Of a DNA stretch of 33,234 nucleotides, positions 2,297 to 33,142 are shown piece after piece (position 1 is the first letter of the stretch; each line of letters starts with the position of its first letter). The translations under genes and the position numbers were made by a program. The notes under the pieces are model-generated. The model had not been told where the DNA came from. It did no database searches and worked only from the letters and a program-made list of their open reading frames with translations. The stretch spans positions 1 to 33,234 of the forward strand of contig CAZFYJ010000002.1 in assembly GCA_964523215.1 (NCBI GenBank), given 5' to 3'. The stretch comes from an uncultured Sphingomonadaceae bacterium (lineage in GTDB: Bacteria; Pseudomonadota; Alphaproteobacteria; Sphingomonadales; Sphingomonadaceae).

Positions 2297-3190
2297 CTAT
2301 TTCACGGCTCCCCTTGCGATCAGCCGCGGCACCAGCACGATCGCTGCGATCAGGGGGAAGCGGCGCTGCCACGGCTTGATGCGGATCTGGGTGCCCGCGT
2401 GGCGATTGATCTTCCACGCCAGATAATCAATGCCGCCGGAAAAGGTGAAGCTTGCCTTGGCAAGGCGGATCACGCTCAGCCATTTGCCGCGACGGCGCAG
2501 CCGCTGCCACCGTCTTGCGGCCCCGGCGGGCGTCAGCGCCTGCCTTGGTGAACCAATCACCGCACCAAAGCGGGCATAGCGCGCCGGGTCTGCGTCAACA
2601 ATAGTGCCCGATCGGCTGCTGCGTTCCGCGCGCAACTCGGTGGCATAGGTGCGCGCAAATCCCGTCTGCCAGATCGCCATCGGCGCGGGATCCGGGCTGA
2701 CCGGGGCGGCAAGCGCAAACAGCGTGGGCGCGGCCTGCGCAACCGCGGCAATGGCGGCATCGCGCGCGGCATCATCATGCGTCCACACAAGGCGGCTGGG
2801 CTGGGCAAAGCGCGCCCACACGCTCGCATTATCGGCTTCCAGGCTGCACAGCCGGGCAAAATCTGCCATGCTGAGCACCGCATATTTGGCCGCCAGCGCG
2901 CCCTGCGCATAGGGAAAGACATTGGGCGGAATCAGCCGGTTGGCCGCCGCCAGCCAGCGGCTGCCGGGATAGGCGGCCCGATAATCGCCGACGATCAGAT
3001 AGAAATCGAGCATCAGGCCATCGAGCTGCGCCTCGCGCAGGCAGGATCCGTAAAACAGCACGGCCATGGCCGATGGATGGTGGTCCGCAATCGCCGCTGC
3101 CATTGCCGCGACCCGCGGATCGACCGGCTCGGCCAGTTCGGCGGCAACGAGCTCTGCAAGGTCGGTCTGCCCCGGCAAGGGCCGGCTCAT
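2297..3190 (-). CDS. Tam41/Mmp37-like nucleotidyltransferase-fold protein (putative lipid cytidylyltransferase)
   Basis: Track ORF 2297..3244. The start was set at ATG 3190 (MSRPLPGQ), which forms an ATGA overlap with the stop of the upstream kinase gene. The pattern FYGSCLRE..LMLDFYLIV..PPNVFPY..AKYAVLSMADF..VWARFAQP resembles the Tam41 family as I remember it (YGSG..DhhhhV..YFNP..KYGVhS..L..GRLQKP). Confidence 0.55.
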   Translation of the reverse strand: MSRPLPGQTDLAELVAAELAEPVDPRVAAMAAAIADHHPSAMAVLFYGSCLREAQLDGLMLDFYLIVGDYRAAYPGSRWLAAANRLIPPNVFPYAQGALAAKYAVLSMADFARLCSLEADNASVWARFAQPSRLVWTHDDAARDAAIAAVAQAAPTLFALAAPVSPDPAPMAIWQTGFARTYATELRAERSSRSGTIVDADPARYARFGAVIGSPRQALTPAGAARRWQRLRRRGKWLSVIRLAKASFTFSGGIDYLAWKINRHAGTQIRIKPWQRRFPLIAAIVLVPRLIARGAVK

Positions 3191-4167
3191 GCCGCCATTT
3201 TCAGGAAAGGCACTGGCGCTGTCGAGCGCAGCACGATGGGGCACCCGCGCGTCGCCCGAAATGTCTCGCCATCGAGTATTACATCAGTGGCGTCGCTTTC
3301 GATGCGGATCATGTCGCCCTGCTGCACATGTACGCCCGCCAGCGGCTGTGTGCCCAATCTGCCGAGCATGGCGGCCCACAAGGCCTTGAGCAGCGCGCTG
3401 CCCGAGGATTCGACCGCCAGCAGCTTCAGCCCGCCCGTGCCCCCGGCCTGCGCACGGCTGCTCAGCAACAGCCGCTCCAGCGTGGTGACAATCAGGAAGG
3501 AAAAGCGCTGGGTTGCATCGTCGCCGCGCACCAGCGAGACCTTGACCGGATTGGGCGCGGGCGGAAGAAAGCGGGCGCGAATGCCGGACAGCATCGAAAA
3601 GATCACCGCCATTCCGGCAATCACATGGCTAAGGCCGTTGGGCAGGCCGAGCGGATAGATTTTGTGGCGGCAATAGAGGATGGTGTCAGCCAGCCCGGCA
3701 CCGCCCAGGAACATGCCGAGCACTGGCTTCGCTTTGTCCGCTGCCGCGTCCGGATCGCCCGAGGACAGGGCAATCAGCTCGCGCTCAATGATATAGGGTT
3801 TGAGATCGCCACGGGCCCGCGCCACGATCTGCTCCAGCGCCTTCAGCGGATCGCCCTGCGCCCCCAGATCGAGTGCGATAAGATTGGTCTTGCCATTGGG
3901 CAGCACGGCAACGGGCGGCGGCGTTCCGCCATAAGCGCCGGAATAAAGCTCGGTGAGTGCGGCCTGCACCGTGCCATCGCCGCCGTTCACGATAATCAGC
4001 TCTGGCCGCACCATGGCGATGCTGGCAATTGCTGCATCAATCTGCCCCACATCATCCACCTCATAATGGAAAACATCGGGATTGGCGATGCAATAGGCGC
4101 GGATTTTGGGCAGGATGGCGCGGTTGCCCGTCGAACAGGGGTTCGAAAGCAGGGCCACCCGCGCCAT
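3187..4167 (-). CDS. Diacylglycerol-kinase-catalytic-domain lipid kinase (YegS/LCB5/ceramide-kinase-like)
   Basis: 326 aa. The N-terminal region MARVALLSNP...ELIIVNGGDGTVQ carries the GGDGT motif of the DAGK_cat family. Confidence 0.8.
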   Translation of the reverse strand: MARVALLSNPCSTGNRAILPKIRAYCIANPDVFHYEVDDVGQIDAAIASIAMVRPELIIVNGGDGTVQAALTELYSGAYGGTPPPVAVLPNGKTNLIALDLGAQGDPLKALEQIVARARGDLKPYIIERELIALSSGDPDAAADKAKPVLGMFLGGAGLADTILYCRHKIYPLGLPNGLSHVIAGMAVIFSMLSGIRARFLPPAPNPVKVSLVRGDDATQRFSFLIVTTLERLLLSSRAQAGGTGGLKLLAVESSGSALLKALWAAMLGRLGTQPLAGVHVQQGDMIRIESDATDVILDGETFRATRGCPIVLRSTAPVPFLKMAA

Positions 4168-4170
4168 GAC

Positions 4171-4704
4171 TTATCCCACCGGCCCGAACGACAGGCCATC
4201 GACATAGTTCATCACGATGGTGATCCTTGCCGTGGCGGCACCCACATTGAAAGCGACCTTGGCCATGCTGGGCTTTTTCTGGAGCAGCACGTCGGTCAGG
4301 CTGTATTTGGGATTGCCGGAAAGCCCGCCGCCATCGCTGCGGTCCGATTTGCGGTTGCCGTTCATGTCGTGCCGCACAAACACGGCATAGGTGCCCGGCT
4401 TGGCGACCGGCACGCACACGGCCATGGTGCCCGTCCTGCTGACCGGCACATCGACCCGGGCAAGCCATTTGTCACGTTCCATGAACGTCGCCCGGTTGTT
4501 GGCATAAAGCCGCACGCTGATCGTCCCTGCGCGCTTTTTCAGGCCAGTCACCGTCACCAGCACGGCCGTCTTGTTGTCGTTGCAGAGCGCCGCCTGCGGC
4601 CCAAGTGCCGCTGCGCCCGCCGCATGCGGGGTGGCTGCCAGCCCAATCGCCAGCGCTGCAACGCCAAGGCTGCCCGCCATCTTCTGCTTCATCGTCACCA
4701 TCAT
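4171..4704 (-). CDS. Secreted DUF2141-family protein
   Basis: It has a signal peptide (KQKMAGSLGVAALAIGLAATPHAAG). The body VTVTGLKKRAGTISVRLY...PGTYAVFVRHDMNGNRKSD...GLSGNP matches my recollection of the DUF2141 pattern (..V.L...FP....G.YA....HDENGNGKLD...G.P.EGYGFSNN). The stop lies 3 nt from the kinase start. Confidence 0.6.
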   Translation of the reverse strand: MMVTMKQKMAGSLGVAALAIGLAATPHAAGAAALGPQAALCNDNKTAVLVTVTGLKKRAGTISVRLYANNRATFMERDKWLARVDVPVSRTGTMAVCVPVAKPGTYAVFVRHDMNGNRKSDRSDGGGLSGNPKYSLTDVLLQKKPSMAKVAFNVGAATARITIVMNYVDGLSFGPVG

Positions 4705-4897
4705 GCTCCTGCATCATGCACCGGGCCGCCCAAAGGAGCCCCGGCGCATGAAGCTCACGCCTTATCACGATCGCATATGATGAAAATTTGCGGCCAAAAA
4801 ATGGTGAAGGCTGGACGATATCGGGAAATTCGCGCAAAAGAGGGGAGCTCATCGGCCATCATTGCGGCCCCCCAATCAGGTTGATCACGCTTTCATC

Positions 4898-15894: not shown

Positions 15895-16652
15895 GCCGAT
15901 TTTCGTGCCCGCCGCTTGCGCGGTGCCGGATCGCTTCCGGTGCGGGGCGCCGCATCATCATGCGCGTGGATGCGTGGGCGCACGGGCTTTGCATCGCGTT
16001 CGACCAACAGCGTATCGATGCGCTTTTGCATTGCCTGCATCTCGCACTTCAGGATCTCGAGCTGTTGGGTCGCAGGGTCGAAACGGTCGCTGCACGGCGT
16101 GCCATAGGGAATGAAATCAGTGGTTTCGGGCTTGACCTCGACCAGCGTCGAACGGGCCGGGATGCCGACCATCGTCGCACCCGGCGGCACATCCTTGGTC
16201 ACCACTGCATTGGCCCCGATGCGTGCACCGGCGCCGACCACGACCGGCCCCAGCACCGCCGCGCCCAGGCTGATGATGACCTGATCGCCGATGGTGGGGT
16301 GTCGCTTGCCCCTTTCGCCGCTGGCGGGGTTGGTGCCGCCCAGCGTCGCGCCCTGATAGATGGTCACGTCATCGCCGATCTCGGCTGTCTCGCCGATCAC
16401 GACAAAGCCGTGATCAATGAAGAAATTGCGGCCGATCGTCGCACCCGGATGGATGTCGATCCCGGTCAGTATGCGGCTGACATGATTGACCAGGCGGGCC
16501 AGGAAAAACAGCTGCGCCTCATACAGCCAGTGCGCCACGCGGTGCATGCCCAGCGCAAGCACCCCCGGATAGATCAGCACTTCCCAGCGCGAGCGCGGCG
16601 CAGGATCGCGCGCACGGATCGAATCCAGATAGGCAATCAGCGAATCAAACAT
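15891..16652 (-). CDS. cysE: Serine O-acetyltransferase
   Basis: The start was set at ATG 16652 ([18 protein letters not shown]...). Hexapeptide-repeat region: [43 protein letters not shown]. The C-terminal extension is long and basic. Confidence 0.9.
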
Positions 16653-16775
16653 GCGCCCTCTTTTCTCTCTGGCGGCCAGTGCCCCACGCGGGCTTGCCAA
16701 ATCCCGGATGGTGGCCCCCAGTTTTTCCCGGAACAGTCTCGGTCAGTTTCGCGGCAATGTAAACCGTCTAGAAAA

Positions 16776-16822
16776 ATCGACAAAAGCGATTATCTGATGC
16801 ATATTAATCGAAGAAGGTCGAT
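16776..16822. promoter_or_regulatory. Two LysR-type dyads (ATCG-N7-CGAT and ATCG-N8-CGAT) just upstream of oxyR
   Basis: The dyads are atcgacaaaagcgat at 16776-16790 (T-N11-A type) and atcgaagaaggtcgat at 16807-16822. They lie in the cysE-oxyR divergent intergenic region, next to the oxyR ATG at 16824. Confidence 0.3.
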
Positions 16823-16823
16823 C

Positions 16824-17771
16824 ATGCACGCCTATCTGCCCTCGCTCAAGCAGCTGCAATATTTTGTCGCGCTTTATGATCATCAGCATTTCGGCCGTGC
16901 GGCAGAGGCCTGTTTCGTGACACAGTCAACCCTGTCTGCCGGCCTGCGCGAGCTGGAAAATCTGCTGGGCGTGGTGCTGGTCGAGCGCACCCGGCGTGTG
17001 GTGCGCTTCACGGCGCAAGGCGAAAAGATGGTGGCCAAGGCCATTCGCGTGCTGCGCGAGGCCGAAGAACTGACAGCCCTTGCGGTGGCATCGGGCAAGC
17101 CGCTGACGGGCGAGCTGAGGATGGCTGTGATCCCCACCATCGCACCGTTTCTGCTGCCGCGTCTGCTGCCCGGCCTGCGCGCGGAGCGGCCGGAGCTGCG
17201 GCTCTATCTGCGCGAGGAAACTAGTGGCGCAGCCTGCGAATCGCTGCATCGGGGCACGGTCGATTGCGTGCTGCTGGCGCTGCCGTTCGCGTGCGGCGAC
17301 GTGGCCATTGCCGAGCTGTTTGACGATCCGCTGCAAATGGCTTTTCCGGCGGCTGAGGCAGAGCGGTTGCCCCCGGTGGTGTCGCCAGAGATGCTGGCGG
17401 CGGACCAGCTGCTGCTGCTTGAAGACGGGCACTGCCTGAAGGATCATGCGCTGTCTGCCTGCAACCGGCCCGATCTGCGCACCAATGCCGCGATGCTGGG
17501 CACGTCGCTCCACACGCTGGTGCAGATGGTGGACAATGGCCTGGGCGCAACGATGCTGCCGCAAATGGCCATCGATGCCGGGCTGATTGCGAACACCGGC
17601 ATTGCGGTGCGCCCGCTGGATTCGGCCCACCCCTATCGTTCGATTGCGCTGATCTGGCGCAAAAACACCCCGCGTGAGGCCGAATTCCAGCTGCTGGCAG
17701 AGCTGCTGCGCAACCATGGGGCGCGCGGGCAGCAGCGGCACACCGCAGCCAGGGGGCAGATGGCCGCCTAG
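16824..17771 (+). CDS. oxyR: LysR-family peroxide-sensing transcriptional regulator OxyR
   Basis: This is the C-terminal 315 codons of track ORF 15960..17771. It has a LysR HTH (LKQLQYFVALYDHQHFGRAAEACFVTQSTLSAGLRELE) and the OxyR redox-Cys signature LLLLEDGHCLKDHALSAC. The ATG at 16798 is an alternative start. Confidence 0.85.
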   Translation: MHAYLPSLKQLQYFVALYDHQHFGRAAEACFVTQSTLSAGLRELENLLGVVLVERTRRVVRFTAQGEKMVAKAIRVLREAEELTALAVASGKPLTGELRMAVIPTIAPFLLPRLLPGLRAERPELRLYLREETSGAACESLHRGTVDCVLLALPFACGDVAIAELFDDPLQMAFPAAEAERLPPVVSPEMLAADQLLLLEDGHCLKDHALSACNRPDLRTNAAMLGTSLHTLVQMVDNGLGATMLPQMAIDAGLIANTGIAVRPLDSAHPYRSIALIWRKNTPREAEFQLLAELLRNHGARGQQRHTAARGQMAA

Positions 17772-22627: not shown

Positions 22628-22892
22628 GGGTTCGGCATAGCGCCAACCGGGCGGCTTGCGAAGCCTTGGGCAACGCCAAAGATGACACTTGTGTCATCGA
22701 TATGTGGCCCTGCTGGCGCGGTCGGCTGAGACAGCAGGGACTGGACCTGTGGTCCATTTCGGATCATAGTTGCGGGGTCGAGTCCAAAGCAGCCATGGCG
22801 TGCTGCGCATAATGATAAACGATCGACCTTTTTTTGGCGTCGCAACATGTTGAAATCCCGCGCTTCTATGCGCGGCATAAACAGGGGAATGC

Positions 22893-23942
22893 GTGCCACA
22901 ATTTTGCGAAACCCGTGCCGCCACAGCGCATGCCGATCCTGCGAGCGAGGCGATGCAGCGCCGGCCGATCGGGATGTGCGCCGCTGCACCCGGGGCCCGT
23001 GAGATTGTTGCAATCGCGCATGACGCGCCCGATTTCGGCTGGATTGGCAACAGCGTTGCAGCCCAGCGCGTGCGTGCAATGGTGCGGCGGGTTGCGCCGG
23101 CGGCGTGCACCGTGCTGATCGAGGGGAAAACCGGCACAGGCAAGGACGTGGTTGCCATGGCGCTCCACCGCCAGGGACTGCGTGCGCGGCGCCCGCTGGT
23201 CACAATCAACTGCGCCGCCATCCCCGAAACCCTGATCGAGGGAGAATTGTTCGGCTATCGCAAGGGCGCGTTCACGGGCGCGCACTGCGGCTATGCGGGC
23301 AAGATTGCGCTTGCCGATCGCGGCACGCTGTTTCTCGACGAAGTGGGCGAGCTCAGCCTTGCTGCGCAGGCCAAATTGCTGCGGGTTCTGGAAAATCGGG
23401 AGGTTGTTCCCCTGGGCGGGGCAGAGCGGCGCATTGTTGATGTGCGCATCATTGCGGCAACCAATCAGCATCTCGAGGCTGCTGTTGCGGCGGGGCGCTT
23501 CCGCGCGGATCTGTTTTACCGGCTGGCGGTGGTGCGCCTGTCGCTGCCCGCGCTTGCCTCTCACCGGGAGGATATTGCGCCGATCGCGCAGCATCTGGTG
23601 GCGCGCATGGCAGCCGACATGCAGCTGGCCGAGGTCCACATTGCCGCCGATTGCCTGGCCGCATTGAAGCAGCATGACTGGCCGGGCAATGTGCGCGAGC
23701 TGCGCAACGCGCTCGAACATGCGCTGGTGATCGCGCCCGATCCCACACGGTTGACGGCGGATGATCTGCCCGATTCAGTGCGCTTTGTGCCTGTGCCCCC
23801 GGCCGGGCGCGATGCTGCCGACGATCGCCAGCTGCTGGTCGACGCGCTGGCGGCGTGCGCCGGGAAAAAGGCCGATGCGGCCCGCATGCTCAAATGCTCG
23901 CGCATGACACTCTATCGCCGCATGGAGCGTGCCGGCCTGTAA
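22893..23942 (+). CDS. Sigma-54-dependent transcriptional activator (bEBP) lacking an N-terminal sensory/receiver domain
   Basis: AAA+ core with Walker A (LIEGKTGTGKD), ELFGYRKGAFTGA (the GAFTGA sigma-54 contact loop) and Walker B (GTLFLDEVGEL). It has a C-terminal Fis-type HTH (KKADAARMLKCSRMTLYRRMERAGL). Only about 45-65 residues precede the AAA+ domain. The start is ambiguous: GTG 22893 or ATG 22953. Confidence 0.9.
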   Translation: MPQFCETRAATAHADPASEAMQRRPIGMCAAAPGAREIVAIAHDAPDFGWIGNSVAAQRVRAMVRRVAPAACTVLIEGKTGTGKDVVAMALHRQGLRARRPLVTINCAAIPETLIEGELFGYRKGAFTGAHCGYAGKIALADRGTLFLDEVGELSLAAQAKLLRVLENREVVPLGGAERRIVDVRIIAATNQHLEAAVAAGRFRADLFYRLAVVRLSLPALASHREDIAPIAQHLVARMAADMQLAEVHIAADCLAALKQHDWPGNVRELRNALEHALVIAPDPTRLTADDLPDSVRFVPVPPAGRDAADDRQLLVDALAACAGKKADAARMLKCSRMTLYRRMERAGL

Positions 23943-23946
23943 CAGC

Positions 23947-23989
23947 TGTCACAGCCGGCGTGACGGAAACTGTCACAGCACATGTGACA
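23947..23989. promoter_or_regulatory. Two tandem palindromes TGTCAC-N7-GTGAC(G/A): candidate enhancer (UAS) sites for the adjacent bEBP
   Basis: Site 1 is 23947-23965 (tgtcacagccggcgtgacg) and site 2 is 23971-23989 (tgtcacagcacatgtgaca). The centres are 24 bp apart and lie about 85 and 61 bp upstream of the -24 GG. An A6 tract (24008-24013) lies between the sites and the promoter. Confidence 0.6.
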
Positions 23990-24039
23990 CATCATGGCCT
24001 TGCGCACAAAAAACGCTTTCGGATCAATGCTTACGCAAC

Positions 24040-24055
24040 TGGCATGCTGCTTGCT
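24040..24055 (+). promoter_or_regulatory. Sigma-54 (-24/-12) promoter
   Basis: TGGCATgctgcTTGCT matches TGGCAC-N5-TTGCW at all but one position, with exact GG-to-GC spacing. It lies directly downstream of a bEBP gene and the palindromic sites, and directly upstream of the CIS operon. Confidence 0.7.
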
Positions 24056-24066
24056 GATGAAAGGGC

Positions 24067-24420
24067 ATGACGGATGCAGACCGGCACGCCCAGCAGGATC
24101 AGCACAGCGCGGAGGCAGCACAGCCGGCGCGCCACTATGTCAATCACATTGCCTTGAGCGTCAGCCTGTCTGAAGTGCGGATCGATCTGGGGCAGGATTT
24201 TCCGGATGAACATTCGCCGCGGCCGCAGTGCCGCCTCGTCACCAGCCCGGTCCATCTCCAGCGGATCGAACACAGTATCGCGGCTGCCCTCTCCCTCTAT
24301 CGCAGCCGTTTCGGGCTGATAGGCGAGCCCGGTGGCTGGAGCCGCGCCGACGGATCGCCCGCGGCAGATGCACCTGCAGACACCTCACCCGATCTGCCGG
24401 GGCCGGAGGGGCGGCACTGA
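24067..24420 (+). CDS. DUF3467-like small protein, first gene of the CIS operon
   Basis: 117 aa. HYVNHIALSVSLSEVRIDLGQDFP...CRLVTSPVHLQRIEHSIAAALSLYRSRFG fits my memory of the DUF3467 pattern (YSN....HS..EF..DF........K.R....P.HAKRL...L...I..YE...G). The C-terminal tail is disordered and Pro/Asp-rich. Confidence 0.55.
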   Translation: MTDADRHAQQDQHSAEAAQPARHYVNHIALSVSLSEVRIDLGQDFPDEHSPRPQCRLVTSPVHLQRIEHSIAAALSLYRSRFGLIGEPGGWSRADGSPAADAPADTSPDLPGPEGRH

Positions 24421-25031
24421 TGGCGGGGCTTGATGCGATCCATGCTGTGGGGGATAGTCTCGCGCTCTTGCTGCAGCGCAGGCGTGGCCTGCTGGCGGCC
24501 GAGGGGCGGCTCGCCCCGGTGCCGGAAAGCGATACCATCCAGCAGCTCACCGTGCCGGCGCTGATTGCTGCGCCGCCTGCGGCCGGGCTTTCGATCAGCT
24601 GCTATCATCTCGATTATTCCGAAGCCGTGCCAGGCCGACGCGCGACCAGCGATCCGGCGGCCGCGCACGGCATTTCGCTGGAGCTGAACTATCTGATCGC
24701 CAGCTGGAGCAACACGCCCGCCGCCGATATGGCGCAGCTGAGCTGGGCCATGCTGGAGCTGGGCCGGTTTCCGACGATCGATCGGGCGCTGATGGCCAAT
24801 CCGGCGGGCTGGGGGCGCGATGAGAGCCTGCAGATCGTGCCGCAGCAGGCGCAGCCGGAGCAGATCTTCCGAATCTGGGAAGCGCTCAAGATGAAGCATC
24901 GGCTCGCCGCCTTGTTCAAGGTGCGCGTGGTGCGCATTGGCTATGGTCCGGTTGCAGATGCGGCACCGGTGGTCGCATCCCGCTTCAGCTTTGCGCATGG
25001 GGATGTCAGCGAAGAGGCGGCCATCGCATGA
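24420..25031 (+). CDS. DUF4255 (Pvc16/Afp16 N-terminal domain) protein, CIS tail terminator/cap
   Basis: The start is the ATG at 24420, inside track ORF 24228..25031 (TGATG overlap with the previous stop). The features AVGDSLALLL, LSISCYHLDYSE, LELNYLIASWS...M..L and LFKVRVVRIG are typical of DUF4255. Confidence 0.7.
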   Translation: MAGLDAIHAVGDSLALLLQRRRGLLAAEGRLAPVPESDTIQQLTVPALIAAPPAAGLSISCYHLDYSEAVPGRRATSDPAAAHGISLELNYLIASWSNTPAADMAQLSWAMLELGRFPTIDRALMANPAGWGRDESLQIVPQQAQPEQIFRIWEALKMKHRLAALFKVRVVRIGYGPVADAAPVVASRFSFAHGDVSEEAAIA

Positions 25032-25834
25032 TGACGATGCTGCGCCCCGATCTGCTCGACCGGCGGGCGCTGGCGCTGGTCCAGCTGCTTGATGCGCTTG
25101 GCCGTCCGCTGGCCGCGACGGCACGGATGACAGCCCCGGCGCTGCGCCTCTATGCCAAGGGCAGCGGGCGCTATGCGGTGCTCGGGGCGGCGGGGCTTGA
25201 GGATTATGCCGCCAGCTTTGCAACGCCCGCGGCCCCCGCCTTGCGCAGCGTCAGCCTGCCAGTGGATATTGTGCCCGGCGATGGCGCACATCTGCCCCGC
25301 CGCTTTACCCTGGCGTTGCCCCGCGATCCCGATCCGGCACAGCGCGGCACTGCTGCGAGCCTGTTCGATGCGATTCCGGTCGCGCTGCTGCCAAGCCCCG
25401 CAGCGGGCATTCCGGCGACAGCGGCGGCGGTGCGCGTCACCGTGCGCAAGCGCAATGACGGGCGGCGTGTCGCGGGGGCGCTGGTCCGCGTGGCAAGCGA
25501 CAATGGCCGCTTCACGGCCACCGGCATGACCGACGCGACGGGCGAGGCGCTGGTGCTGATCCCTGCATTTCCGGGCGCATTTCCCGGCCCCGGGGCCAAG
25601 CTGCAGGATTTTCTGCCGGGGAAGGTGACGGCCGTTGCCGATCCTGCCCGCGCCGTGCTGGTTGCCGAGGATGGCCTGCTGGCCGCCCAGGCAGAGGCGG
25701 CCCGGCAGGTCGCCGGATTTGCTGATCCCGATGCACTGGCAGCAGCCTTTCCTGCGCCCAGTGCCGGCGCCGTTGCCATCCGGCTCTCCACCCGTCGCCC
25801 GGCCATCGCCCAGGCGGAATGGAGGGCGCCATGA
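25028..25834 (+). CDS. Hypothetical CIS-associated protein with a carboxypeptidase-regulatory-like beta-sandwich segment
   Basis: 268 aa, starting in an ATGA overlap with the cap gene. The segment VRVTVRKRNDGRRVAGALVRVASDNGRFTATGMTDATGEALVLIP resembles CarboxypepD_reg/Big-like folds. Nothing else was recognised. Confidence 0.5.
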   Translation: MMTMLRPDLLDRRALALVQLLDALGRPLAATARMTAPALRLYAKGSGRYAVLGAAGLEDYAASFATPAAPALRSVSLPVDIVPGDGAHLPRRFTLALPRDPDPAQRGTAASLFDAIPVALLPSPAAGIPATAAAVRVTVRKRNDGRRVAGALVRVASDNGRFTATGMTDATGEALVLIPAFPGAFPGPGAKLQDFLPGKVTAVADPARAVLVAEDGLLAAQAEAARQVAGFADPDALAAAFPAPSAGAVAIRLSTRRPAIAQAEWRAP

Positions 25835-25900
25835 TGATTGTCCATCGGGTGCCGCTGCCTGCCATGGCCGCTCGCATAATTCTCTTGAAGGAGCATGATA

Positions 25901-27637
25901 ATGCCTGAATATCTCGCGCCCGGCGTGTTTGTTGAAGAAACGAGCTTTCGCGCCAAATCAATCGAAGGGGTGAGCACCAGCACGGCCGCCTTTGTTGGCA
26001 TGACGGCGCGGGGGCCGACCACCGGCGGGGTGGGCGATCCGCTGCCGCCGCTGCTTACATCCTATGCTGATTATGAGCGCTATTATGGCGGGCTGGACGA
26101 TCTGCGCCTGCAAAGCGGGCCGAAGCCGAATTTCATGGCGCAGGCAGCAAATGCGTTTTTCGCCAATGGTGGCGGGCGGCTCTATGTCGCGCGGGTGCTG
26201 GGGGCAGGTGCATCTGCAGCCGGTGCCGAGATTGCCGGGCCGAGTGCGGCAAAGAAGATTGTGCTCAGTGCGCGCAAGCCTGGCGGATCGCAGATCCCGG
26301 GCAGCAGTGGCACCAATTTCCGCGTCATTTTCACATTGGTTGATCTCGTCACCACGAAAAAGCTCGCGCGCAAGCAGCAACCCGGCACGCTGGTGCGTTC
26401 TGGTGCGAACAATGCGACGCTCGATTTCGTTGGCGTCGATACCATAGCGGACAATGACGATCCGTGCATCATCCAGACCGTGACGGCCGAAGTCTATGAT
26501 GCAACCGGCCTTGTGTATGAGGCATCGGGCTTGAGCGTCCACCCGAGTTCGCCGCGCTATATTGCCACCATCATGGGGGCCAAGCCGCCGCAAACCCGCG
26601 ATGCGCTCACCAATCCGGTGATGCTGGACATCGCCGGCAACATGACGCCGGCCGAGGTGATCGCCGCCTTGGCACCGACAGCCAGCGAAAAGAGCCGCAT
26701 TGCCAACCTCACTGGCGGCTCTGATGGCACGGGCGCACCGCCGGCCAAAAAGGCCAATGCCGCTGCGCCCCCCGGCTATGAGGATGCGCTGGCGCAGCTG
26801 CTGGCAATGGAGGACATCTCGATCGTGGCGGCGCCCGGCCTCTCCGATTTCGGAGACAGCGTGGCCGCTGCCGTCAATCAGGCGCTGATCGGCCATGCCG
26901 AGGCCCGCCGGGCCTATCGCATTGCCGTGCTCGATACGCCACAGGCCAAGGAATTGCAGGATGTGCAGGCGATCAAGGGCAAGATCGACAGCAAGCATGC
27001 CGCGCTTTATTATCCCTGGATCAGAGTGAGCAATCCGCTTGCTGCGACCGATCCGCTGCAGCCTGCGGAGATTGATCTGCCCCCGTCCGGCCATGTGTGC
27101 GGCATCTATGCCCGCACCGATGTGCAGCGCGGGGTGTGGAAAGCGCCAGCCAACGAAACCGTCACCGGGGCGCTCGGCCTCCAGCGCGCAATATCCTATG
27201 GCGAGCAGGAACTGCTGAATCCGCTGGGCATCAACTGCATCCGCGCGCTGCCCAATCGTGGCATCCGGGTGTGGGGTGCGCGCACCATCAGCTCTGATCC
27301 CGAATGGAAATATGTGAACATCCGTCGCTATTTCCTTTACCTCGAAAGCTCGATCGATCGCGGCACCCAATGGGCCGTGTTCGAGCCCAATGGCGAGGCG
27401 CTGTGGGCCAATGTGCGCACCACCATCAGCGATTTTCTTTACAATGAATGGGTGAACGGCGCGCTGCTGGGGGCCAGCCCCAAAGAGGCATTCTTCGTCC
27501 GCTGTGATCGCAGCACGATGACCCAGAATGATCTCGATAATGGCCGCCTCGTCTGCCTGATTGGCGTGGCTGCGATCAAGCCTGCCGAGTTCGTCATTTT
27601 CAGGATCGGCCAGAAAACCGCCGATGCCCGCGGCTAG
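25901..27637 (+). CDS. Contractile tail sheath protein
   Basis: The start was set at ATG 25901, 7 nt after GAAGGAG. MPEYLAPGVFVEETSFRAKSIEGVSTSTAAFVG is the canonical sheath N-terminus. The C-terminal sheath domain is present (YYPWIRV..., INCIRALPNRGIRVWGARTIS, FFVRCDRSTMTQNDLDNGRLV). Confidence 0.92.
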   Translation: MPEYLAPGVFVEETSFRAKSIEGVSTSTAAFVGMTARGPTTGGVGDPLPPLLTSYADYERYYGGLDDLRLQSGPKPNFMAQAANAFFANGGGRLYVARVLGAGASAAGAEIAGPSAAKKIVLSARKPGGSQIPGSSGTNFRVIFTLVDLVTTKKLARKQQPGTLVRSGANNATLDFVGVDTIADNDDPCIIQTVTAEVYDATGLVYEASGLSVHPSSPRYIATIMGAKPPQTRDALTNPVMLDIAGNMTPAEVIAALAPTASEKSRIANLTGGSDGTGAPPAKKANAAAPPGYEDALAQLLAMEDISIVAAPGLSDFGDSVAAAVNQALIGHAEARRAYRIAVLDTPQAKELQDVQAIKGKIDSKHAALYYPWIRVSNPLAATDPLQPAEIDLPPSGHVCGIYARTDVQRGVWKAPANETVTGALGLQRAISYGEQELLNPLGINCIRALPNRGIRVWGARTISSDPEWKYVNIRRYFLYLESSIDRGTQWAVFEPNGEALWANVRTTISDFLYNEWVNGALLGASPKEAFFVRCDRSTMTQNDLDNGRLVCLIGVAAIKPAEFVIFRIGQKTADARG

Positions 27638-27666: not shown

Positions 27667-28122
27667 ATGCCCACACGCGATACGCCCTTTGGCGCCTATA
27701 ATTTCCTGGTTGAATTTGATGGCAATGAATCATCCAGCTCTGCCCTGGGCGGCTTTTCCGATGTTTCCGGCCTCGGCACGGAAATCACGCTCATGGAATA
27801 TCGCCAGGGCAACGACAAGGAAAACCGCGTCCGCAAAATCCCCGCGCTGCACAAGTCCGGCGATGTCACCCTGAAACGCGGGATCATGGGCCTTGCCAAT
27901 TTCTGGCAATGGGTGAACATCACTCGCGTTGATCCCACGCACAAGCGCAATGTTTCGATCGCGCTGCAGGATGAGGTGGGCAACATCATCCTCAAATGGA
28001 AGCTGGTGAATGCCCGCCCGATGAAATGGACCGGGCCGACTCTCGCTGCCAAGGGCGGCAGCGATGTCGCCATGGAAGAGCTGGTGCTCGCATCCGAAGG
28101 CATCGAGCTCGAAGATGCCTGA
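27667..28122 (+). CDS. Tail tube protein (T4 gp19 / 'conserved phage tail region protein' family)
   Basis: 151 aa behind a GAGGAG Shine-Dalgarno sequence. It contains FGAYNFLVEFDG...LGGFSDVSGLGTEITLMEYRQGN...GDVTLKRGI...FWQW and MEELVLASEGIEL. Confidence 0.9.
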   Translation: MPTRDTPFGAYNFLVEFDGNESSSSALGGFSDVSGLGTEITLMEYRQGNDKENRVRKIPALHKSGDVTLKRGIMGLANFWQWVNITRVDPTHKRNVSIALQDEVGNIILKWKLVNARPMKWTGPTLAAKGGSDVAMEELVLASEGIELEDA

Positions 28123-28166: not shown

Positions 28167-29882
28167 ATGCCGCGCCCCGGCCTCTTCTTTTCACAGGCTT
28201 CGCCCCCGCTGCCCCGGCTTTCCACCCGGGCAGATGTGGCGCTGTTTGTCGGCCTGATCGCGCGCACGCAAGCAGCACCGTCTGACGCACAGATGGATGC
28301 GCTGGAGGCGGGGGGGTGGATTGCCCCGCTTGCGGTGCCGGGCCCGAGGCCGACGACGCGTGCTGCCATCGATGCAGCCACGGCCGCGCAAAAGGCGGAT
28401 CGGCTGGCGGCCGCCATGCCGCTGCTCGGCCTGCCCGTGGCGGTGGAAAGCTTTGAGAGTTTTGCGACGCTCTATGATTGGCAATGCCGCCCGGTCGAGG
28501 TCGGTGCCACCATCCGCATCGGCTGCCCGCTGGGGCTTGCGGTGCATGCCTTTTTTGCCGAAGGCGGCCGGCGCGCCTATATTGTTCGCACCGGCGATCC
28601 GCTGCCGCTGGCGGATAGCCGGGTGGATGCCGATCAGGCGGCCTTTGCGGCGGCAAAGCTGGCGCTGCTCGATTGGCCGGCGGCAAAGCCACCCGCCGAT
28701 GCCGCGGATCGCCATCCGCTCATTCCCGGCCTCGTCAATTTTGCGGCCCGGCCCGATCCGGGCAATCGAAGCAGCTGGCGCGGCGCGGCGGCGATCTTCG
28801 GGCTGGATGATGTGGCCTTGCTCGCCCTGCCTGATCTGGTTGATCTCTGTGCTGGCAGCCCATTGCCCGCAGCGTCCGTGCCGCCCCCGCCAGCCAGCGC
28901 CGAACAGTTCAAGCCCTGTGCCGCCATCGTGCCCGATGCGGCACCTGCCCTGCGTCCGGCGCTGCCGCAATGGCAGGCGCCACGCCTCGACCAGACGGGC
29001 TATGCGCGCTGGGCCGGGGCCGTGCGCGCTGTGCTCGATCTCCTGGCGCGTCCTGCCGGGCCGGCGCATCGGCGCGATGTCATGCTGATCGGTGCGGCAC
29101 CGCTGCCGCGCATTGACGCCGGATTTGATCATGGCGAGGAGCGCAATCCGCTTGCCGTGCTGGCGCAAAGCGGGGCAGTGATTGCCGATCAGAGCCTGCT
29201 CTCCGCGGCGCATATTGGCAGCGCGCGGCTGCAGCTCGGCTATCCCTGGATTGCAACCGCAATTTCGGGCGAGCAGCCCGAAGGGCTGGCCGGGCCGGAG
29301 GGCGCACTGGCCGGCATTCTTGCGCGCACAGCGCTTGAAAGCGGGGCATTCCGCAGCGCGGCCGACCGGCCAAGCTATGCCGCGAACGGCCTTTGGCCCC
29401 GGCTGGGCAGCGCAGATCTCGATCGCGCCGCGGGGGACAGCGCGGGCTGGCTGGGCAGCCGCCTGTGCCTGTTTGGCGAACGGGCCGGCGTGCTGCGCCT
29501 GTTGAGCGATGCAACCACGGCCGAAAGCCGCAGCTGGCAGCCTGGCGGCGTTTCGCGCCTGATGGGCATCATCCTGCGCGCGGGGCGCCATCTGGGCTCA
29601 GATCTCATCTTCGAGCCATCAGGGCCGCTCACCTGGGTGGCGTTGCGCGGCCGCATCGAACAGCTGATGGAGCAGCTGCGCGCGCTGGGGGCCTTTTCGG
29701 GCGCCAGCGCCGAGGAATGCTATGCCGTGCGCTGCGATGCAGGCACGATGAGCCGGGCCGATCTGGATGCCGGGCGGCTGATTGCCCAGATAGGCTTTGC
29801 GCCTGCCTATCCGGTGGAGCGGATCACTGTGCTGCTCGATCTGACGGGCGGCAATGCAGCACCGGTGCGGGAGGCGGCCTGA
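28167..29882 (+). CDS. Divergent second sheath-like protein
   Basis: 571 aa. The N-terminus PGLFFSQASPP...ADVALFVGLIART mimics the sheath N-terminus. The C-terminus ECYAVRCDAGTMSRADLDAGRLIAQIGFAPAYPVERITVLL is clearly paralogous to the FFVRCDRSTMTQNDLDNGRLVCLIGVAAIKPAEFVIFRI segment of the first sheath. Confidence 0.75.
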   Translation: MPRPGLFFSQASPPLPRLSTRADVALFVGLIARTQAAPSDAQMDALEAGGWIAPLAVPGPRPTTRAAIDAATAAQKADRLAAAMPLLGLPVAVESFESFATLYDWQCRPVEVGATIRIGCPLGLAVHAFFAEGGRRAYIVRTGDPLPLADSRVDADQAAFAAAKLALLDWPAAKPPADAADRHPLIPGLVNFAARPDPGNRSSWRGAAAIFGLDDVALLALPDLVDLCAGSPLPAASVPPPPASAEQFKPCAAIVPDAAPALRPALPQWQAPRLDQTGYARWAGAVRAVLDLLARPAGPAHRRDVMLIGAAPLPRIDAGFDHGEERNPLAVLAQSGAVIADQSLLSAAHIGSARLQLGYPWIATAISGEQPEGLAGPEGALAGILARTALESGAFRSAADRPSYAANGLWPRLGSADLDRAAGDSAGWLGSRLCLFGERAGVLRLLSDATTAESRSWQPGGVSRLMGIILRAGRHLGSDLIFEPSGPLTWVALRGRIEQLMEQLRALGAFSGASAEECYAVRCDAGTMSRADLDAGRLIAQIGFAPAYPVERITVLLDLTGGNAAPVREAA

Positions 29883-30463
29883 TGGTCTTCGCCCCGCCCC
29901 GTGGCCAGGATGCCCGCACGCCTTATGGCAATTTCGGCTTTCACGTCTCTTTTGTGGGGCCCGATCTGCAAGCGCTGTTCGGCGGGTTGCACAGCACATC
30001 GACCTCGCTGCTCGGCGGCTTTTCCGAAGTCTCCGGGCTTGAGGCATCGATGGAGCACAAGATGATCAAGGAAGGCGGGCGCAATTATGGCGTGGTGATG
30101 CGCGCGGGCCCGACCGGATTTGGCACGGTCGTGCTGAAGCGCGGCATCGTCAGCTCGCGCCATTTGTGGCGCTGGTGGTCCCGTTTCGCCGGGGCGGATG
30201 GCGCCAATGATGCATTGCCCAACAGCGCGCATCGCTGCGATGTGCTGATTGGCCTTATCCAGCCGGTGGCGTCGCTCGGCCTGCAAAAGCTGGCAGAGCG
30301 CGATCGCGCAGAAACGGCGCATGTGGCCCGGGTTGCCTGGAAATTGCGCAATGCCATGCCAGTCCGGTTCAAGATCGGCGATCTCAACGCAAAGGGAAGC
30401 GATGTGGCCATGGAAGAGCTGCATCTGGTGCACGAAGGCCTCGATCTGGAGCCGGTCGCATGA
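29882..30463 (+). CDS. Second tail tube paralogue (gp19 family)
   Basis: The start is the ATG at 29882 inside track ORF 29393..30463 (TGATG overlap). YGNFGFHVSF...LLGGFSEVSGLEASMEHKMIKEGG...GTVVLKRGIVSSRHLWRWW...MEELHLVHEGLDLE parallels the first tube protein. Confidence 0.85.
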   Translation: MVFAPPRGQDARTPYGNFGFHVSFVGPDLQALFGGLHSTSTSLLGGFSEVSGLEASMEHKMIKEGGRNYGVVMRAGPTGFGTVVLKRGIVSSRHLWRWWSRFAGADGANDALPNSAHRCDVLIGLIQPVASLGLQKLAERDRAETAHVARVAWKLRNAMPVRFKIGDLNAKGSDVAMEELHLVHEGLDLEPVA

Positions 30464-31836
30464 CCCGCGTCGCACCCGGCACGCTCACACGCGCGATGCT
30501 GCGCCCCAAGGCCAGCGAGAGCGAGACGACGCGCCGCAGCGACAGCGACAATCTGCTCGTCCAGTTCAATCCGTCGACCTTGCGCGTGTCCTTCACCAAC
30601 CAGTTCGGCGAGGGCAAGCCGTTCGAACATGCCAATGAAACCACTGCCAAGCTCGATGTCGAGCTGATCTTCGATACGACGGACAGCGGCGACAGCGTCT
30701 ATCTTTATCTCAACAAGCTGATCGCGATGACGCGCGCCAATGTGCCGGCGTCCACAGGCAGCGGCAATCAGGCCAATCAGCCCGCGGGCTCGGTGCCGAT
30801 CATCGAGTTTCACTGGCGCACCAAATTGTTCGAAGGGGTGGTCGAATCGCTCACCCAGACGATCGAATATTGGTCGCATGATGGCGTGCCGCTGCGCGCG
30901 ACGGTGCAGCTGTCGCTCAAGGAAACCCGCAAAGTGGACGTGCGCGACAGCTATCGTGCGCGTCGCACAGCCGCCGACATCGCCATCAACGACCGGGCAG
31001 ATGCGCCGGTCGCGGTGCCGCCCCCCATTGGGGCCAAAGGCGCGACCGAAACGGCGACGAAAGGCGGCAACAGCCGCGCCGGACGCAGCATCGCCGCGCT
31101 GAACGGGATGGAGAGCATGCGCAGCGCCGTCGCTGGCGCCAGTGCCAGTGCTGGCGCCGGGGCAGGCGCATTTGCCGGGGCAGGCGCATTTGCCGGGGCG
31201 AGCGCCAGTGCCAGTGCCAGCGCCAGTGCCAGTGCTGGTGCGGCCATTGCGGTCAGCGCCGGGGTCAAGCTGGAGGCTGCCGCAGGATTTGCTGCATCGG
31301 GTGGCGTCAGTGCCAAGGCAGGCGCGGGCGCTTCGCTGGGCTTCGGGGTCGGCGCGGCGGCTGGTGCCAGCGCAGGTGCAGGGCTGGGTGCCAGTGTCGG
31401 CATTGGCATGGCGGCAGGCGCAGGTGGCGGGGCGGGCATCGGGGCAGGCATCGGAGCAGGTGCGGGCATCAGCGCTGGCGCCGGTTTCTCCGCGGGTGCG
31501 TCGGCGGGTGTCGGGATTTCCGCATCAGCGGGTGCGTCTGCGGGCGTCACTGCCGGTGCATCGGCAGGCGCGAAGGCGAGTGCCTCGGCCAGTGCAGGCG
31601 TTTCCGCCTCGGCCGGTGCCTTTGCCGGTATCGGCCCATCGAAGGCGATGGCAGGCGTCACCGGGGTCAACCCGGCAGCGTTGCTGCCGCCCCCGATGCC
31701 GATGCCGATCGGGGCCGGCGCACGTTTTGATGAATCCGGTCGCCTGACAGGCAGCAGCGGCGTGATGGTTGCCGAAAGCTACAGCATCGACAGTGCCGGC
31801 AACGAAAAGCGCAGCTCGCGCGTGGAGATTTTCTGA
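30460..31836 (+). CDS. CIS tube-domain (Afp7/Pvc7 tube-initiator-like) protein with a long Ala/Gly/Ser low-complexity C-terminal region
   Basis: 458 aa. The N-terminal 170 aa or so (LLVQFNPSTLRVSFTNQF...KLDVELIFDTT...PIIEFHWRTKLFEGVVESLTQTIEYWSHDGVPLRATVQLSLKE) fit the CIS_tube pattern that, as I recall, is normally fused to LysM. Residues about 224-394 are (A/G/S)n. A non-repetitive tail of about 60 aa follows. Confidence 0.75.
   Translation: MTRVAPGTLTRAMLRPKASESETTRRSDSDNLLVQFNPSTLRVSFTNQFGEGKPFEHANETTAKLDVELIFDTTDSGDSVYLYLNKLIAMTRANVPASTGSGNQANQPAGSVPIIEFHWRTKLFEGVVESLTQTIEYWSHDGVPLRATVQLSLKETRKVDVRDSYRARRTAADIAINDRADAPVAVPPPIGAKGATETATKGGNSRAGRSIAALNGMESMRSAVAGASASAGAGAGAFAGAGAFAGASASASASASASAGAAIAVSAGVKLEAAAGFAASGGVSAKAGAGASLGFGVGAAAGASAGAGLGASVGIGMAAGAGGGAGIGAGIGAGAGISAGAGFSAGASAGVGISASAGASAGVTAGASAGAKASASASAGVSASAGAFAGIGPSKAMAGVTGVNPAALLPPPMPMPIGAGARFDESGRLTGSSGVMVAESYSIDSAGNEKRSSRVEIF
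31129..31640 (+). repeat. In-frame low-complexity/tandem-repeat DNA encoding the Ala/Gly/Ser tract
   Basis: An exact 18-bp unit gccggggcaggcgcattt occurs at 31156-31173 and 31174-31191, with a partial third copy. Hexamer repeats (AGY GCC) x6 occupy 31201-31236. Degenerate GCN/GGN/AGY codon runs continue to about 31640. The other two forward frames (for example 31142..31747) and the reverse strand (30951..31670) also read open across most of the tract. Confidence 0.85.
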
Positions 31837-31855
31837 TGCGAAAGGATGGCCCAGC

Positions 31856-32038
31856 ATGGCTGTGATCATTGATGAAATCATTGCGGAAGGCCCGCCGCCT
31901 TCGCCTGCCATGCCCGCCGCAGGTGCCGCGCAATCGCCCCCTGCCGATGCCCGCGCGGCAGGGCTCGCCGTGCAGCAGCGGATGATGGACGACATGCACC
32001 GCCTGGCACAGCGCCAGTCGCGCATCTGGGCCGATTGA
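31856..32038 (+). CDS. Small (60 aa) CIS-associated protein, possibly DUF5908-like
   Basis: The start is the ATG at 31856, inside track ORF 31769..32038. The N-terminus MAVIIDEIIAEG resembles the MPIEI+EL-type start of small eCIS ORFs as I recall them. It sits in the 217-nt gap between the tube-initiator-like and hub genes. Confidence 0.45.
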   Translation: MAVIIDEIIAEGPPPSPAMPAAGAAQSPPADARAAGLAVQQRMMDDMHRLAQRQSRIWAD

Positions 32039-32053
32039 GCGACGAGGCAGGAC

Positions 32054-33142
32054 ATGGCGCTGGACGATCCCGTTGCGGTCTATTCCACCCGGCCCACGAT
32101 CGAAGTGGGCGGCATGGATTATCCTGCGCTCAACAGCAACATCGCGGCCATTCGCGTCAGCGAAGCCCTGGGCGGTCTGACGACGGCAGAGCTGAGCGTG
32201 GTCGATTGGGTGGCGCGGGCGGATGGATCGAGCAGCTTTGGCGCAGACAGCGGATCGCCGCTCGTGCTGGGTGCGTCCTTGCGCGTCTTTCTTGGCCCGG
32301 CAGAGGTGCTTGCGTCCGAGGTCTTCGATGGGCAGATCGTGGCCATCGAGGCTGAAATGCGCCGCGATAGCCCGCCCGCTTTCACGGTGATTGCCGAAGA
32401 TCGCCTGTTTGCCGCCCGCCGCATCCGCAAAAGCCGCACCTTTGAAGCGGCGAGCCTTGCCGATCTGGTCAGCGCCATCGCCGCAGACCATGGCCTGACC
32501 CCCGAAGTGCGCGACGGGCTGGATACGCCTTTCAGCGATTGGGCGCAGCAGGATGAGAGCGATCTGGCCTTTCTGCGCCGGGTTCTGGCCCGGTTCGATG
32601 CCGATGCCCAGGTGGTCGGCAATCGCCTGCAGGCCGGACGGATTGGCGTCGATCGGCGCAGCGCGATCACGCTGGCGGCAGGCACCACGCTCGAATCCGT
32701 GCGGATCACGGCGGATATGGCGCACCAGATCAGCAGCACGCGGCTGGACAGTTTTGATCCCATCAGCGGCGATCCAGTGACCGGCGAGGCCGAAGCAACG
32801 GGCAGCGGGCCGGGCCGCGGGCGCAGCGGCAAGGATGTGCTGGCCGCCGATTTTCAGGCGATTGCGCTGCCGCTTGGCCATCATGGGCCGATGACGGCAG
32901 AGGAGGCAACGGCAATGGCCCAGGCCGAGGCGGACCGCCGGGCGCGCAGCTTTGTGACGGCCCGGGGCACCGCGATCGGCAATGCCCAGCTGCGGGTTGG
33001 CAGCTGGATCACGCTGGCGGGCGTCAATCCCGCCTTTGCCAATGATTATGCAGTGAAGCAGGCCGTGCATCGCTATGAGCCGGTGGAGGGCTATCGCACC
33101 GATTTTGTCGCGGAATGTGCCTATCTGGGAGCCGCGGCATGA
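32054..33142 (+). CDS. Phage late control gene D (gpD/gp27-like) baseplate hub protein
   Basis: 362 aa. It contains FDGQIVAIEAEMRRDSPPAFTVIAEDRLF...RKSRTFEAASLADLVSAIAADHGL and QDESDLAFLRRVLARFDADAQVVGNRL, and the C-terminus GNAQLRVGSWITLAGV is typical of the gpD family. Confidence 0.8.
   Translation: MALDDPVAVYSTRPTIEVGGMDYPALNSNIAAIRVSEALGGLTTAELSVVDWVARADGSSSFGADSGSPLVLGASLRVFLGPAEVLASEVFDGQIVAIEAEMRRDSPPAFTVIAEDRLFAARRIRKSRTFEAASLADLVSAIAADHGLTPEVRDGLDTPFSDWAQQDESDLAFLRRVLARFDADAQVVGNRLQAGRIGVDRRSAITLAAGTTLESVRITADMAHQISSTRLDSFDPISGDPVTGEAEATGSGPGRGRSGKDVLAADFQAIALPLGHHGPMTAEEATAMAQAEADRRARSFVTARGTAIGNAQLRVGSWITLAGVNPAFANDYAVKQAVHRYEPVEGYRTDFVAECAYLGAAA

Follow-up and report, generated by a model that had tools for sequence, protein, structure and literature searches.

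Introduction

The PspF-pspA circuit of E. coli and the HrpR/S-HrpV circuit of Pseudomonas syringae are controlled by activators that consist only of an AAA+ core and a helix-turn-helix (HTH) domain. In both circuits the activator adjoins its target operon and works with upstream sites and bending of the integration host factor (IHF) type. Upstream sites of the NifA/NtrC type have the form TGT-N10-ACA. In this study, we analyzed a stretch of 33,234 nucleotides (hereafter the window; contig CAZFYJ010000002.1, assembly GCA_964523215.1) from an uncultured Sphingomonadaceae bacterium. In the window, a gene for a bacterial enhancer-binding protein (bEBP) is followed by paired dyads, a putative sigma-54 promoter and the operon of a contractile injection system (CIS). 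The arrangement is very likely a self-contained enhancer-dependent sigma-54 switch for an Afp/PVC-like CIS.

Cluster-encoded bEBPs are known to control genes for type VI secretion (T6SS), an example being VasH of V. cholerae (Bernard et al. 2011, J Bacteriol 193:2158, as cited in PMC6653060). The locus is similar to such clusters, in which a bEBP gene in or next to the contractile injection cluster activates its sigma-54 promoters. It differs from them in that the machine is an Afp/PVC-like CIS (Pvc16_N, Phage_sheath_1 and gp19-type tubes), that the activator lacks an N-terminal domain, and that the sites, a possible IHF-like element and the promoter are packed into a single cassette of 120 bp immediately before the operon. 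With the PspF and HrpR/S circuits it shares an activator of AAA+ core and HTH beside the target operon, and a small first product that could in principle feed back. The genes here, however, all point the same way, in contrast to the divergent pspF; among the operon genes scanned, none is a PspA or HrpV homologue, and some orthologues of the activator have a receiver-like N-terminus. Sites of the NifA/NtrC type are likewise paired TGT...ACA palindromes, about 80-130 bp upstream of the -24/-12 promoter and often with IHF between, but the half-site here is TGT(C/A)AC and the overall spacing TGT-N13-ACA.

For extracellular contractile injection systems (eCIS), Chen et al. (2019) list a TetR-family gene as the sole regulator, and the regulators named in the main surveys (Chen et al. 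2019; Geller et al. 2021) are only TetR, GerE, BTAD and RfaH. The RfaH-like AnfA1 of Afp and the TetR, GerE/LuxR and BTAD genes at eCIS loci resemble the present activator as dedicated transcription factors at the 5' edge of the operon. The mode of action would be different, ATP-dependent activation of the sigma-54 holoenzyme in place of sigma-70 activation or antitermination. Neither survey takes up this route. Supplementary Data 10 of Geller et al. (2021) gives the marginal entry Sigma54_activat an odds ratio of 1.59 (false discovery rate 0.041, 49 genes, 4 phyla, "Shell", group "Other") and DUF3467 one of 17.6 (6 genes), and the locus table of the same study has Leptothrix Lcho_3032 (Sigma54_activat plus HTH_8) two genes before afp16. 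The co-occurrence of bEBPs and eCIS is therefore already in print in latent form, but that study gives no account of the promoter or the binding sites, of how these are conserved, or of the cassette as a structure. A full-text literature search returned no paper linking eCIS with sigma-54, RpoN or bEBPs, in line with the original prediction (a reading of the window by eye, from its letters and open reading frames) that such control is not an established eCIS theme. The enhancer-dependent mechanism itself is textbook knowledge; as a theme for one eCIS lineage it is apparently undescribed.

Structure of the regulatory cassette

The elements of the cassette, in window coordinates, are as follows.

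22883 to 22888, + strand: Shine-Dalgarno-like AGGGGA, 4 nt before the GTG of the activator gene (read from the sequence)
22893 to 23942, + strand: sigma-54 activator (bEBP) gene, 349 aa, AAA+ core, lid and Fis-type HTH, without a sensory domain (Pfam)
23124 to 23147, + strand: Walker A GKTGTGKD, aa 78-85 (motif scan)
23265 to 23282, + strand: GAFTGA L1 loop, the sigma-54 contact motif, aa 125-130 (motif scan)
23328 to 23342, + strand: Walker B LFLDE, aa 146-150 (motif scan)
23898 to 23921, + strand: codons of the HTH recognition helix SRMTLYRR, a helix type confined to loci with TGT(C/A)AC upstream sites
23938 to 23943, + strand: extra half-site TGTAAC, overlapping the activator stop codon (sequence scan)
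23947 to 23965, unstranded: dyad 1, distal, TGTCAC-AGCCGGC-GTGACG, centre about -110 from the predicted start (exact match)
23971 to 23989, unstranded: dyad 2, proximal, perfect palindrome TGTCAC-AGCACAT-GTGACA, centre about -86 (exact match)
24008 to 24034, + strand: possible DNA-bending or IHF-like element, weak; an A6 tract (24008-24013), 8 nt and GATCAATGCTTAC (24022-24034)
24040 to 24055, + strand: putative sigma-54 (-24/-12) promoter TGGCATGCTGCTTGCT, GG at 24041-24042 and GC at 24053-24054 (sole exact match in the window)
24065 to 24067, + strand: predicted transcription start, at the ATG of the first gene, with a 5' untranslated region of 0-2 nt (placed by the usual -12 to +1 spacing)

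Pfam assigned Sigma54_activat (PF00158; 1.1e-63, aa 51-216), AAA_lid_14 (1.6e-19) and HTH_8 (PF02954; 5.6e-09, aa 311-346) to the activator, and a GNVREL motif is located at aa 265-270. The start codon is GTG, with alternative in-frame ATGs at 22953 and 22974. The AAA+ core is therefore preceded by 50 residues from the GTG, or by 30 or 23 from the internal ATGs, and no Pfam domain was found in this N-terminal stretch of at most 50 aa. By these matches the activator is a complete NtrC-family bEBP, with its catalytic and contact motifs intact. The sensor-less bEBP with GAFTGA, Walker A and B motifs and a Fis-type HTH, as originally predicted, was thus present in full.

The predicted twin 19-bp dyads sharing the half-site TGTCAC were recovered directly past the stop codon. 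They are the only exact matches to TGTCAC-N7-GTGAC in the window, where 0.01 would be expected; none of 100 shuffled sequences reached 3 hits. The search for further such sites that had been proposed, run here on the 33 kb window, gave none beyond these two. Their centres are 85 and 61 bp upstream of the promoter GG, which agrees with the 61-85 bp originally given. Counted from the predicted start, both are within the range of about 80-150 bp usual for upstream activator sites.

The near-consensus promoter TGGCAT-N5-TTGCT at 24040-24055 was also borne out. TGGCATGCTGCTTGCT is the only exact TGGCAY-N5-TTGCW in the window on either strand (about 0.18 expected per window), and about 3e-4 exact matches would be expected on the + strand of the 124-bp intergenic region. 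Against TGGCACG-N4-TTGCW it scores 11 of 12. The A6 tract noted between the dyads and the promoter was found at 24008-24013; the whole A6-N8-GATCAA-N4-TAC arrangement recalls an IHF site that has an A-tract upstream of it, as a poor match. Among the relatives described below, 10 of 32 loci contain an IHF-like site (8/9 or better to the consensus) in the interval from the upstream sites to the promoter, against 0.34 expected, and many of the best-scoring IHF-like sites start about 31 or 41 bp before TGGCAC.

An RNA element or terminator in the spacer was considered and ruled out. No terminator-like site was found between the activator gene and the promoter, and the spacer RNA showed no extra folding stability over shuffled sequences (z = -0.16).

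Conservation of the cassette in related loci

To avoid bias toward the activator, related loci were fetched by the sheath protein, which is 82% identical to that of Sphingomonas sp. 7/4-4. The set comprised 80 related loci with 10-kb flanks, from contigs of one genome per species (locus numbers with the prefix L are those of this set). By tblastn, a bEBP gene directly upstream of the CIS operon and on the same strand was found in Sphingomonadales relatives, in other Alphaproteobacteria (L020, L027, L079), in Burkholderiales (L044, L045, L049, L055-57, L060), in Accumulibacter (L031-L039), Nitrospira (L025) and Solimonas (L067), and in a Thermoanaerobaculia metagenome-assembled genome (L066). 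Metagenome contigs with independent gene calls again showed the order Sigma54_activat, DUF3467, Pvc16_N, sheath, tube. The upstream neighbours are unrelated among loci, nadC in the window and Bax1-I or GST elsewhere; despite this, the order bEBP, DUF3467, Pvc16, sheath is constant.

Promoters were scored against TGGCACG-N4-TTGCW (maximum 12, GG and GC being obligatory) in the 59 loci whose upstream sequence was long enough, 30 with and 29 without an adjacent bEBP. In almost all activator-linked loci, the stretch from the activator to the first CIS gene contains a site scoring 10-12; a score of at least 10 at the equivalent position was reached in 28 of the 30 loci with an adjacent same-strand bEBP. 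It was also reached in 11 of the 29 loci without one, those listed being at the equivalent position, as in the Thauera group. Promoters of this kind without an adjacent activator suggest that the activator is encoded elsewhere. No site of at least 10/12 was found at the equivalent position in the cyanobacterial, Chloroflexi and Verrucomicrobia loci. In the 2.77 Mb scanned there are 44 sites of at least 11/12, of which 24 are this promoter and 8 more lie just upstream of Pvc16. Alignment of 30 promoter sites (at least 10/12) showed that the positions not required by the score are also conserved: T1 in 27/30, C4 in 30/30, A5 in 27/30, C6 in 26/30, G7 in 27/30, and the TT at positions 12-13 in 28/30 and 30/30. 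By this comparison, the position and order of the three promoter elements are conserved across CIS loci of Alpha-, Beta- and Gammaproteobacteria and Nitrospira.

Two loci have the target side of the cassette. In L018 (8100-8260) the promoter, TGT(C/A)AC dyads and DUF3467 are present with no activator gene within 10 kb, and in L089 (4820-5015) the same elements are present with no activator among the called genes in 5 kb upstream. In both, the cognate activator must be encoded elsewhere.

Co-variation of the recognition helix and the upstream sites

In the interval from -200 to -40 of the promoter (160 bp) in 21 loci, TGTMAC/GTKACA half-sites occur at 2.76 per locus against 0.053 expected, an enrichment of about 50-fold. 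In 11 activator-linked loci of a second type, no TGT(C/A)AC half-site occurs in the same interval; GGGTC..GACCC dyads are visible instead in five Accumulibacter loci and L079. Alignment of the C-termini of the activators separates the same two types: activators with the recognition helix SRMTLYR[RK] occur at loci with TGTMAC sites, and those with ERRALGKLLKK at loci of the second type. Of the evidence at hand, this co-variation speaks most strongly for the dyads as the predicted sites of the activator itself. Twin TGTCAC-N7-GTGACA dyads as in the window are found in L027, and the extra half-site at the stop codon has the same arrangement in L063. Elsewhere the spacers are N8 or N9 (Burkholderiales) or N9 plus N4 or N5 (other Sphingomonadales), and direct repeats of the half-site, about 9 bp apart, are also found among the relatives. 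The half-site word is conserved, and its geometry is flexible.

In another interpretation, the dyads would serve as operator sites of some other protein (a repressor, for instance), or else as RNA hairpins by which the activator transcript is terminated or attenuated. They stand directly after the stop codon, the usual place of a terminator, and each could form a hairpin of 5-6 bp. However, they have no T-run and no terminator call, and the spacer RNA folds no better than shuffled sequences. The half-sites in relatives, moreover, occur as direct repeats and with variable spacing, so that DNA words rather than a hairpin are conserved, and the co-variation with the HTH of the activator points to the activator as the binder. 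We consider this interpretation quite improbable.

It is also conceivable that the activator has another target and adjoins the CIS operon by accident, the promoter match and the dyads being due to chance or belonging to another factor. bEBPs are common in Proteobacteria, an exact promoter match somewhere in the window has a 17% probability by chance, and the enrichment of Sigma54_activat at eCIS loci in the catalogue of Geller et al. is only 1.59-fold. Against this, about 30 loci of several classes, whose upstream neighbours are unrelated, share the order activator, dyads, promoter, CIS operon, the dyad type tracks the HTH type, and TGTCAC-N7-GTGAC is found nowhere else in the window. An accidental arrangement is thus extremely improbable. 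The comparison gives strong evidence that the activator would bind the dyads and drive the sigma-54 promoter of the CIS operon.

The CIS operon

The genes downstream of the promoter, all on the + strand, are as follows.

24067 to 24420, + strand: DUF3467 gene, first cistron, 117 aa, no Shine-Dalgarno sequence at a usable distance (Pfam 7.2e-07; local profile 9e-30)
24420 to 25031, + strand: Pvc16_N/DUF4255 (tail terminator-like) gene, translationally coupled to DUF3467 by TGATG (Pfam)
25028 to 25834, + strand: conserved 268-aa CIS gene (orf268), weak CarboxypepD_reg/Ig-like signal (Pfam)
25895 to 27637, + strand: sheath protein 1 (Phage_sheath_1 7e-25, Phage_sheath_1C)
27667 to 28122, + strand: tube protein 1 (Phage_T4_gp19 5.9e-32)
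28167 to 29882, + strand: sheath paralogue 2 (Phage_sheath_1C 3.5e-04)
29882 to 30463, + strand: tube paralogue 2, its ATG overlapping the preceding stop (Phage_T4_gp19 3.9e-20)
30460 to 31836, + strand: CIS_tube-domain protein (CIS_tube 1.3e-13)
32054 to 33142, + strand: Phage_GPD (baseplate hub/VgrG-like) gene (Pfam)

With Pvc16_N/DUF4255, sheath, gp19-type tube and GPD in one operon, the system is, by its domain content, of the Afp/PVC-like class, an assignment based on the genes up to 33234. The operon runs past the window end at 33234, and gp25, Baseplate_J, PAAR, the AAA+ ATPase and effectors would lie beyond. Its genes overlap or stand close together. As a separate observation, the C-terminal ~230 residues of the CIS_tube protein (30460-31836) form a low-complexity tract of Ala, Gly and Ser (ASASAGAGAG...).

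The sigma-54 promoter might serve mainly DUF3467, in a feedback loop, with the structural CIS genes transcribed chiefly from other promoters. DUF3467 is confined to this activator subtype with its sigma-54 promoter, and internal promoters might lie in two gaps, one of 60 nt (25835-25894) and one of 217 nt (31837-32053). However, the DUF3467 stop overlaps the Pvc16 ATG (TGATG), Pvc16 overlaps orf268, and there is no terminator after DUF3467. Activator-linked loci without DUF3467, moreover, have the same promoter directly before Pvc16. A promoter devoted mainly to DUF3467 is therefore highly improbable.

DUF3467 and the predicted leaderless transcript

By the local profile, DUF3467 was detected in the window and in 22 loci, in each case as the first cistron. 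Among the DUF3467 loci with enough upstream sequence, 19/20 have an adjacent activator and 19/20 a promoter of at least 10. DUF3467 accompanies solely the SRMTLYR-type activator and TGT(C/A)AC sites. The same Pfam domain was found in 88/88 of the DUF3467 database homologues found, and every context examined was CIS-linked. The co-occurrence of DUF3467, activator and promoter is suggestive, not decisive. In L004 and L014, whose sheaths are 64-66% identical to that of the window, the activator, the promoter and DUF3467 are jointly missing upstream of Pvc16. The regulatory cassette thus seems to be gained or lost as a unit, and since the three parts are contiguous, their joint absence could be explained by one replacement event.

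In nine loci (the window, L049, L055, L056, L057, L060, L085, L087 and L089), the DUF3467 ATG is located 11-12 nt past the final base of TTGCW and lacks a usable Shine-Dalgarno sequence. The intervals from the -12 element to the ATG are as follows.

Window: 24055 to 24069
L049: 5866 to 5880
L055: 8302 to 8316
L056: 8281 to 8295
L057: 8311 to 8326
L060: 8283 to 8297
L085: about 502 to 517
L089: 5000 to 5015

For L087 and L089 the gene calls use another start than the in-frame ATG at this position. In the window, L055, L057 and L060, no start codon but this one keeps the conserved domain. The short spacing recurs in the alphaproteobacterial window, in Burkholderiales genomes and in related metagenome contigs. 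Other Sphingomonadales loci have a leader of 23-43 nt, most with a GGAG/GAGA-type (often GGGAGA) Shine-Dalgarno sequence. Sigma-54 transcripts usually start 11-13 nt past the GC. The ATG is thus at the normal start position, and the predicted mRNA has little or no leader.

The AlphaFold model of DUF3467 (mean confidence score, pLDDT, 78, with the core above 90) consists of three strands and a long helix. Compared with PDB and BFVD, the model gave no significant match (best E values 0.3 and 0.005, to unrelated or uncharacterised proteins), and a sequence search of PDB gave none. In the literature, the domain is mentioned by a single, unrelated paper. Among the operon genes, DUF3467 alone is a candidate partner of the activator. 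By analogy with feedback of the PspA-PspF kind, a DUF3467 protein made from a leaderless message might act in trans on the sensor-less activator, the whole unit being a portable eCIS switch; we regard this extended scheme as speculative and rather unlikely.

Ancestry and variation of the activator

The closest solved relative of the activator is ZraR (1ojl, 1.9e-68), followed by NifA (8.8e-65) and FleQ/NtrC1 (about 1e-60); PspF gave only 5e-46. The original prediction had called the protein PspF/HrpS-like, which holds for its domain architecture but not for its sequence, nearer to ZraR, NifA, FleQ and NtrC1 than to PspF. The Pfam scan of the nine operon open reading frames (ORFs) in the window gave no PspA_IM30 or HrpV match. 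The idea of an anti-activator therefore stays speculation.

In most orthologues, the open frame before the AAA+ core has 10-60 codons, and even with the N-termini of ten orthologues extended as far as possible, Pfam detected no sensory domain. By pairwise BLAST, a receiver-like N-terminus of ~130 aa with the motif A-G-A/I-D-D-F/Y-L is common to L005 (6729-7170), L066, L067 and L082 (4492-4900). L045 has a receiver-like N-terminal segment by eye, and L007 an N-terminus of comparable length. Since a receiver-like N-terminus is kept in some orthologues, the activator in the window looks like a truncated response-regulator-type bEBP.

The L1 loop also varies across the family: GAFTGA in 11, GAYTDA in 7, and GAFSSA or GSFSSA in 10. 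GAYTDA is found in Accumulibacter-type activators, and the carriers of GAFSSA or GSFSSA are the nearest Sphingomonadales orthologues (L003, L005, L006, L009, L011-L013, L015, L017, L063). Unlike these nearest relatives, the protein in the window has the canonical GAFTGA.

Genomic setting

To the left of the activator gene, on the opposite strand, is a nadC-like ORF, and beyond it are the housekeeping genes lnt, lptF/G, purC, an M16 peptidase and a LysR-family gene; moaDE, pgsA and nadC were named from reading of the translations. With housekeeping genes upstream, the activator gene would be the left edge of an island. Two further ORFs were noted in the window. The longest LysR-family ORF (15960-17771) has ~295 codons before HTH_1, and this extension is probably not real, an over-long ORF call in GC-rich DNA. 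A 603-codon ORF (3073-4884), just before lptF/lptG, has no Pfam match and overlaps ORFs on both strands; it is a candidate gene.

Proposed mechanism

The activator would be made from its own upstream promoter, and its C-terminal HTH would bind the TGT(C/A)AC cluster past the stop codon, that is, the two dyads and the one extra half-site. The bound AAA+ ring would then loop to sigma-54 RNA polymerase, closed on TGGCAT-N5-TTGCT, and an intrinsic or IHF-type bend around 24008-24034 may aid the looping. By means of ATP and the GAFTGA loop, the ring would open the promoter. Transcription is predicted to begin at or next to the ATG at 24067 and to proceed through the tightly packed, partly translationally coupled operon in the order DUF3467, Pvc16_N, orf268, sheath, tube, sheath, tube, CIS_tube, GPD and onward. 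Since the activator has no sensory domain, the input signal would act through its own expression or through a partner in trans.

Several points weigh against this mechanism. The -24 element has T in place of the consensus C (TGGCAT), and the best match to the IHF consensus WATCAANNNNTTR in the window is only 7/9. The spacing of the dyads differs among relatives, from N4 to N9, which leaves the exact binding geometry loosely defined. With transcription beginning at the ATG, translation would have to be leaderless, itself a prediction for this organism. Finally, a tblastn search for rpoN with an approximate RpoN C-terminal fragment gave no match in the 33 kb window and 81 loci.

Implications

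The cassette is, on the comparative evidence, very probably an on-switch for the injection-system operon. With it, sigma-54 would join the few known eCIS regulators (RfaH-like, TetR, GerE, BTAD). The two pairings, helix SRMTLYR with TGT(C/A)AC and helix ERRALGKLLKK with GGGTC..GACCC, offer testable rules of DNA recognition, and the position of the first ATG makes leaderless translation from a sigma-54 promoter open to test. For eCIS loci, the majority of which are from environmental bacteria, a dedicated activator that lacks a sensor domain is a simple handle. If the activator were expressed under inducible control, the entire operon would be expected to come on, both in this locus and in the many relatives that bear the cassette.

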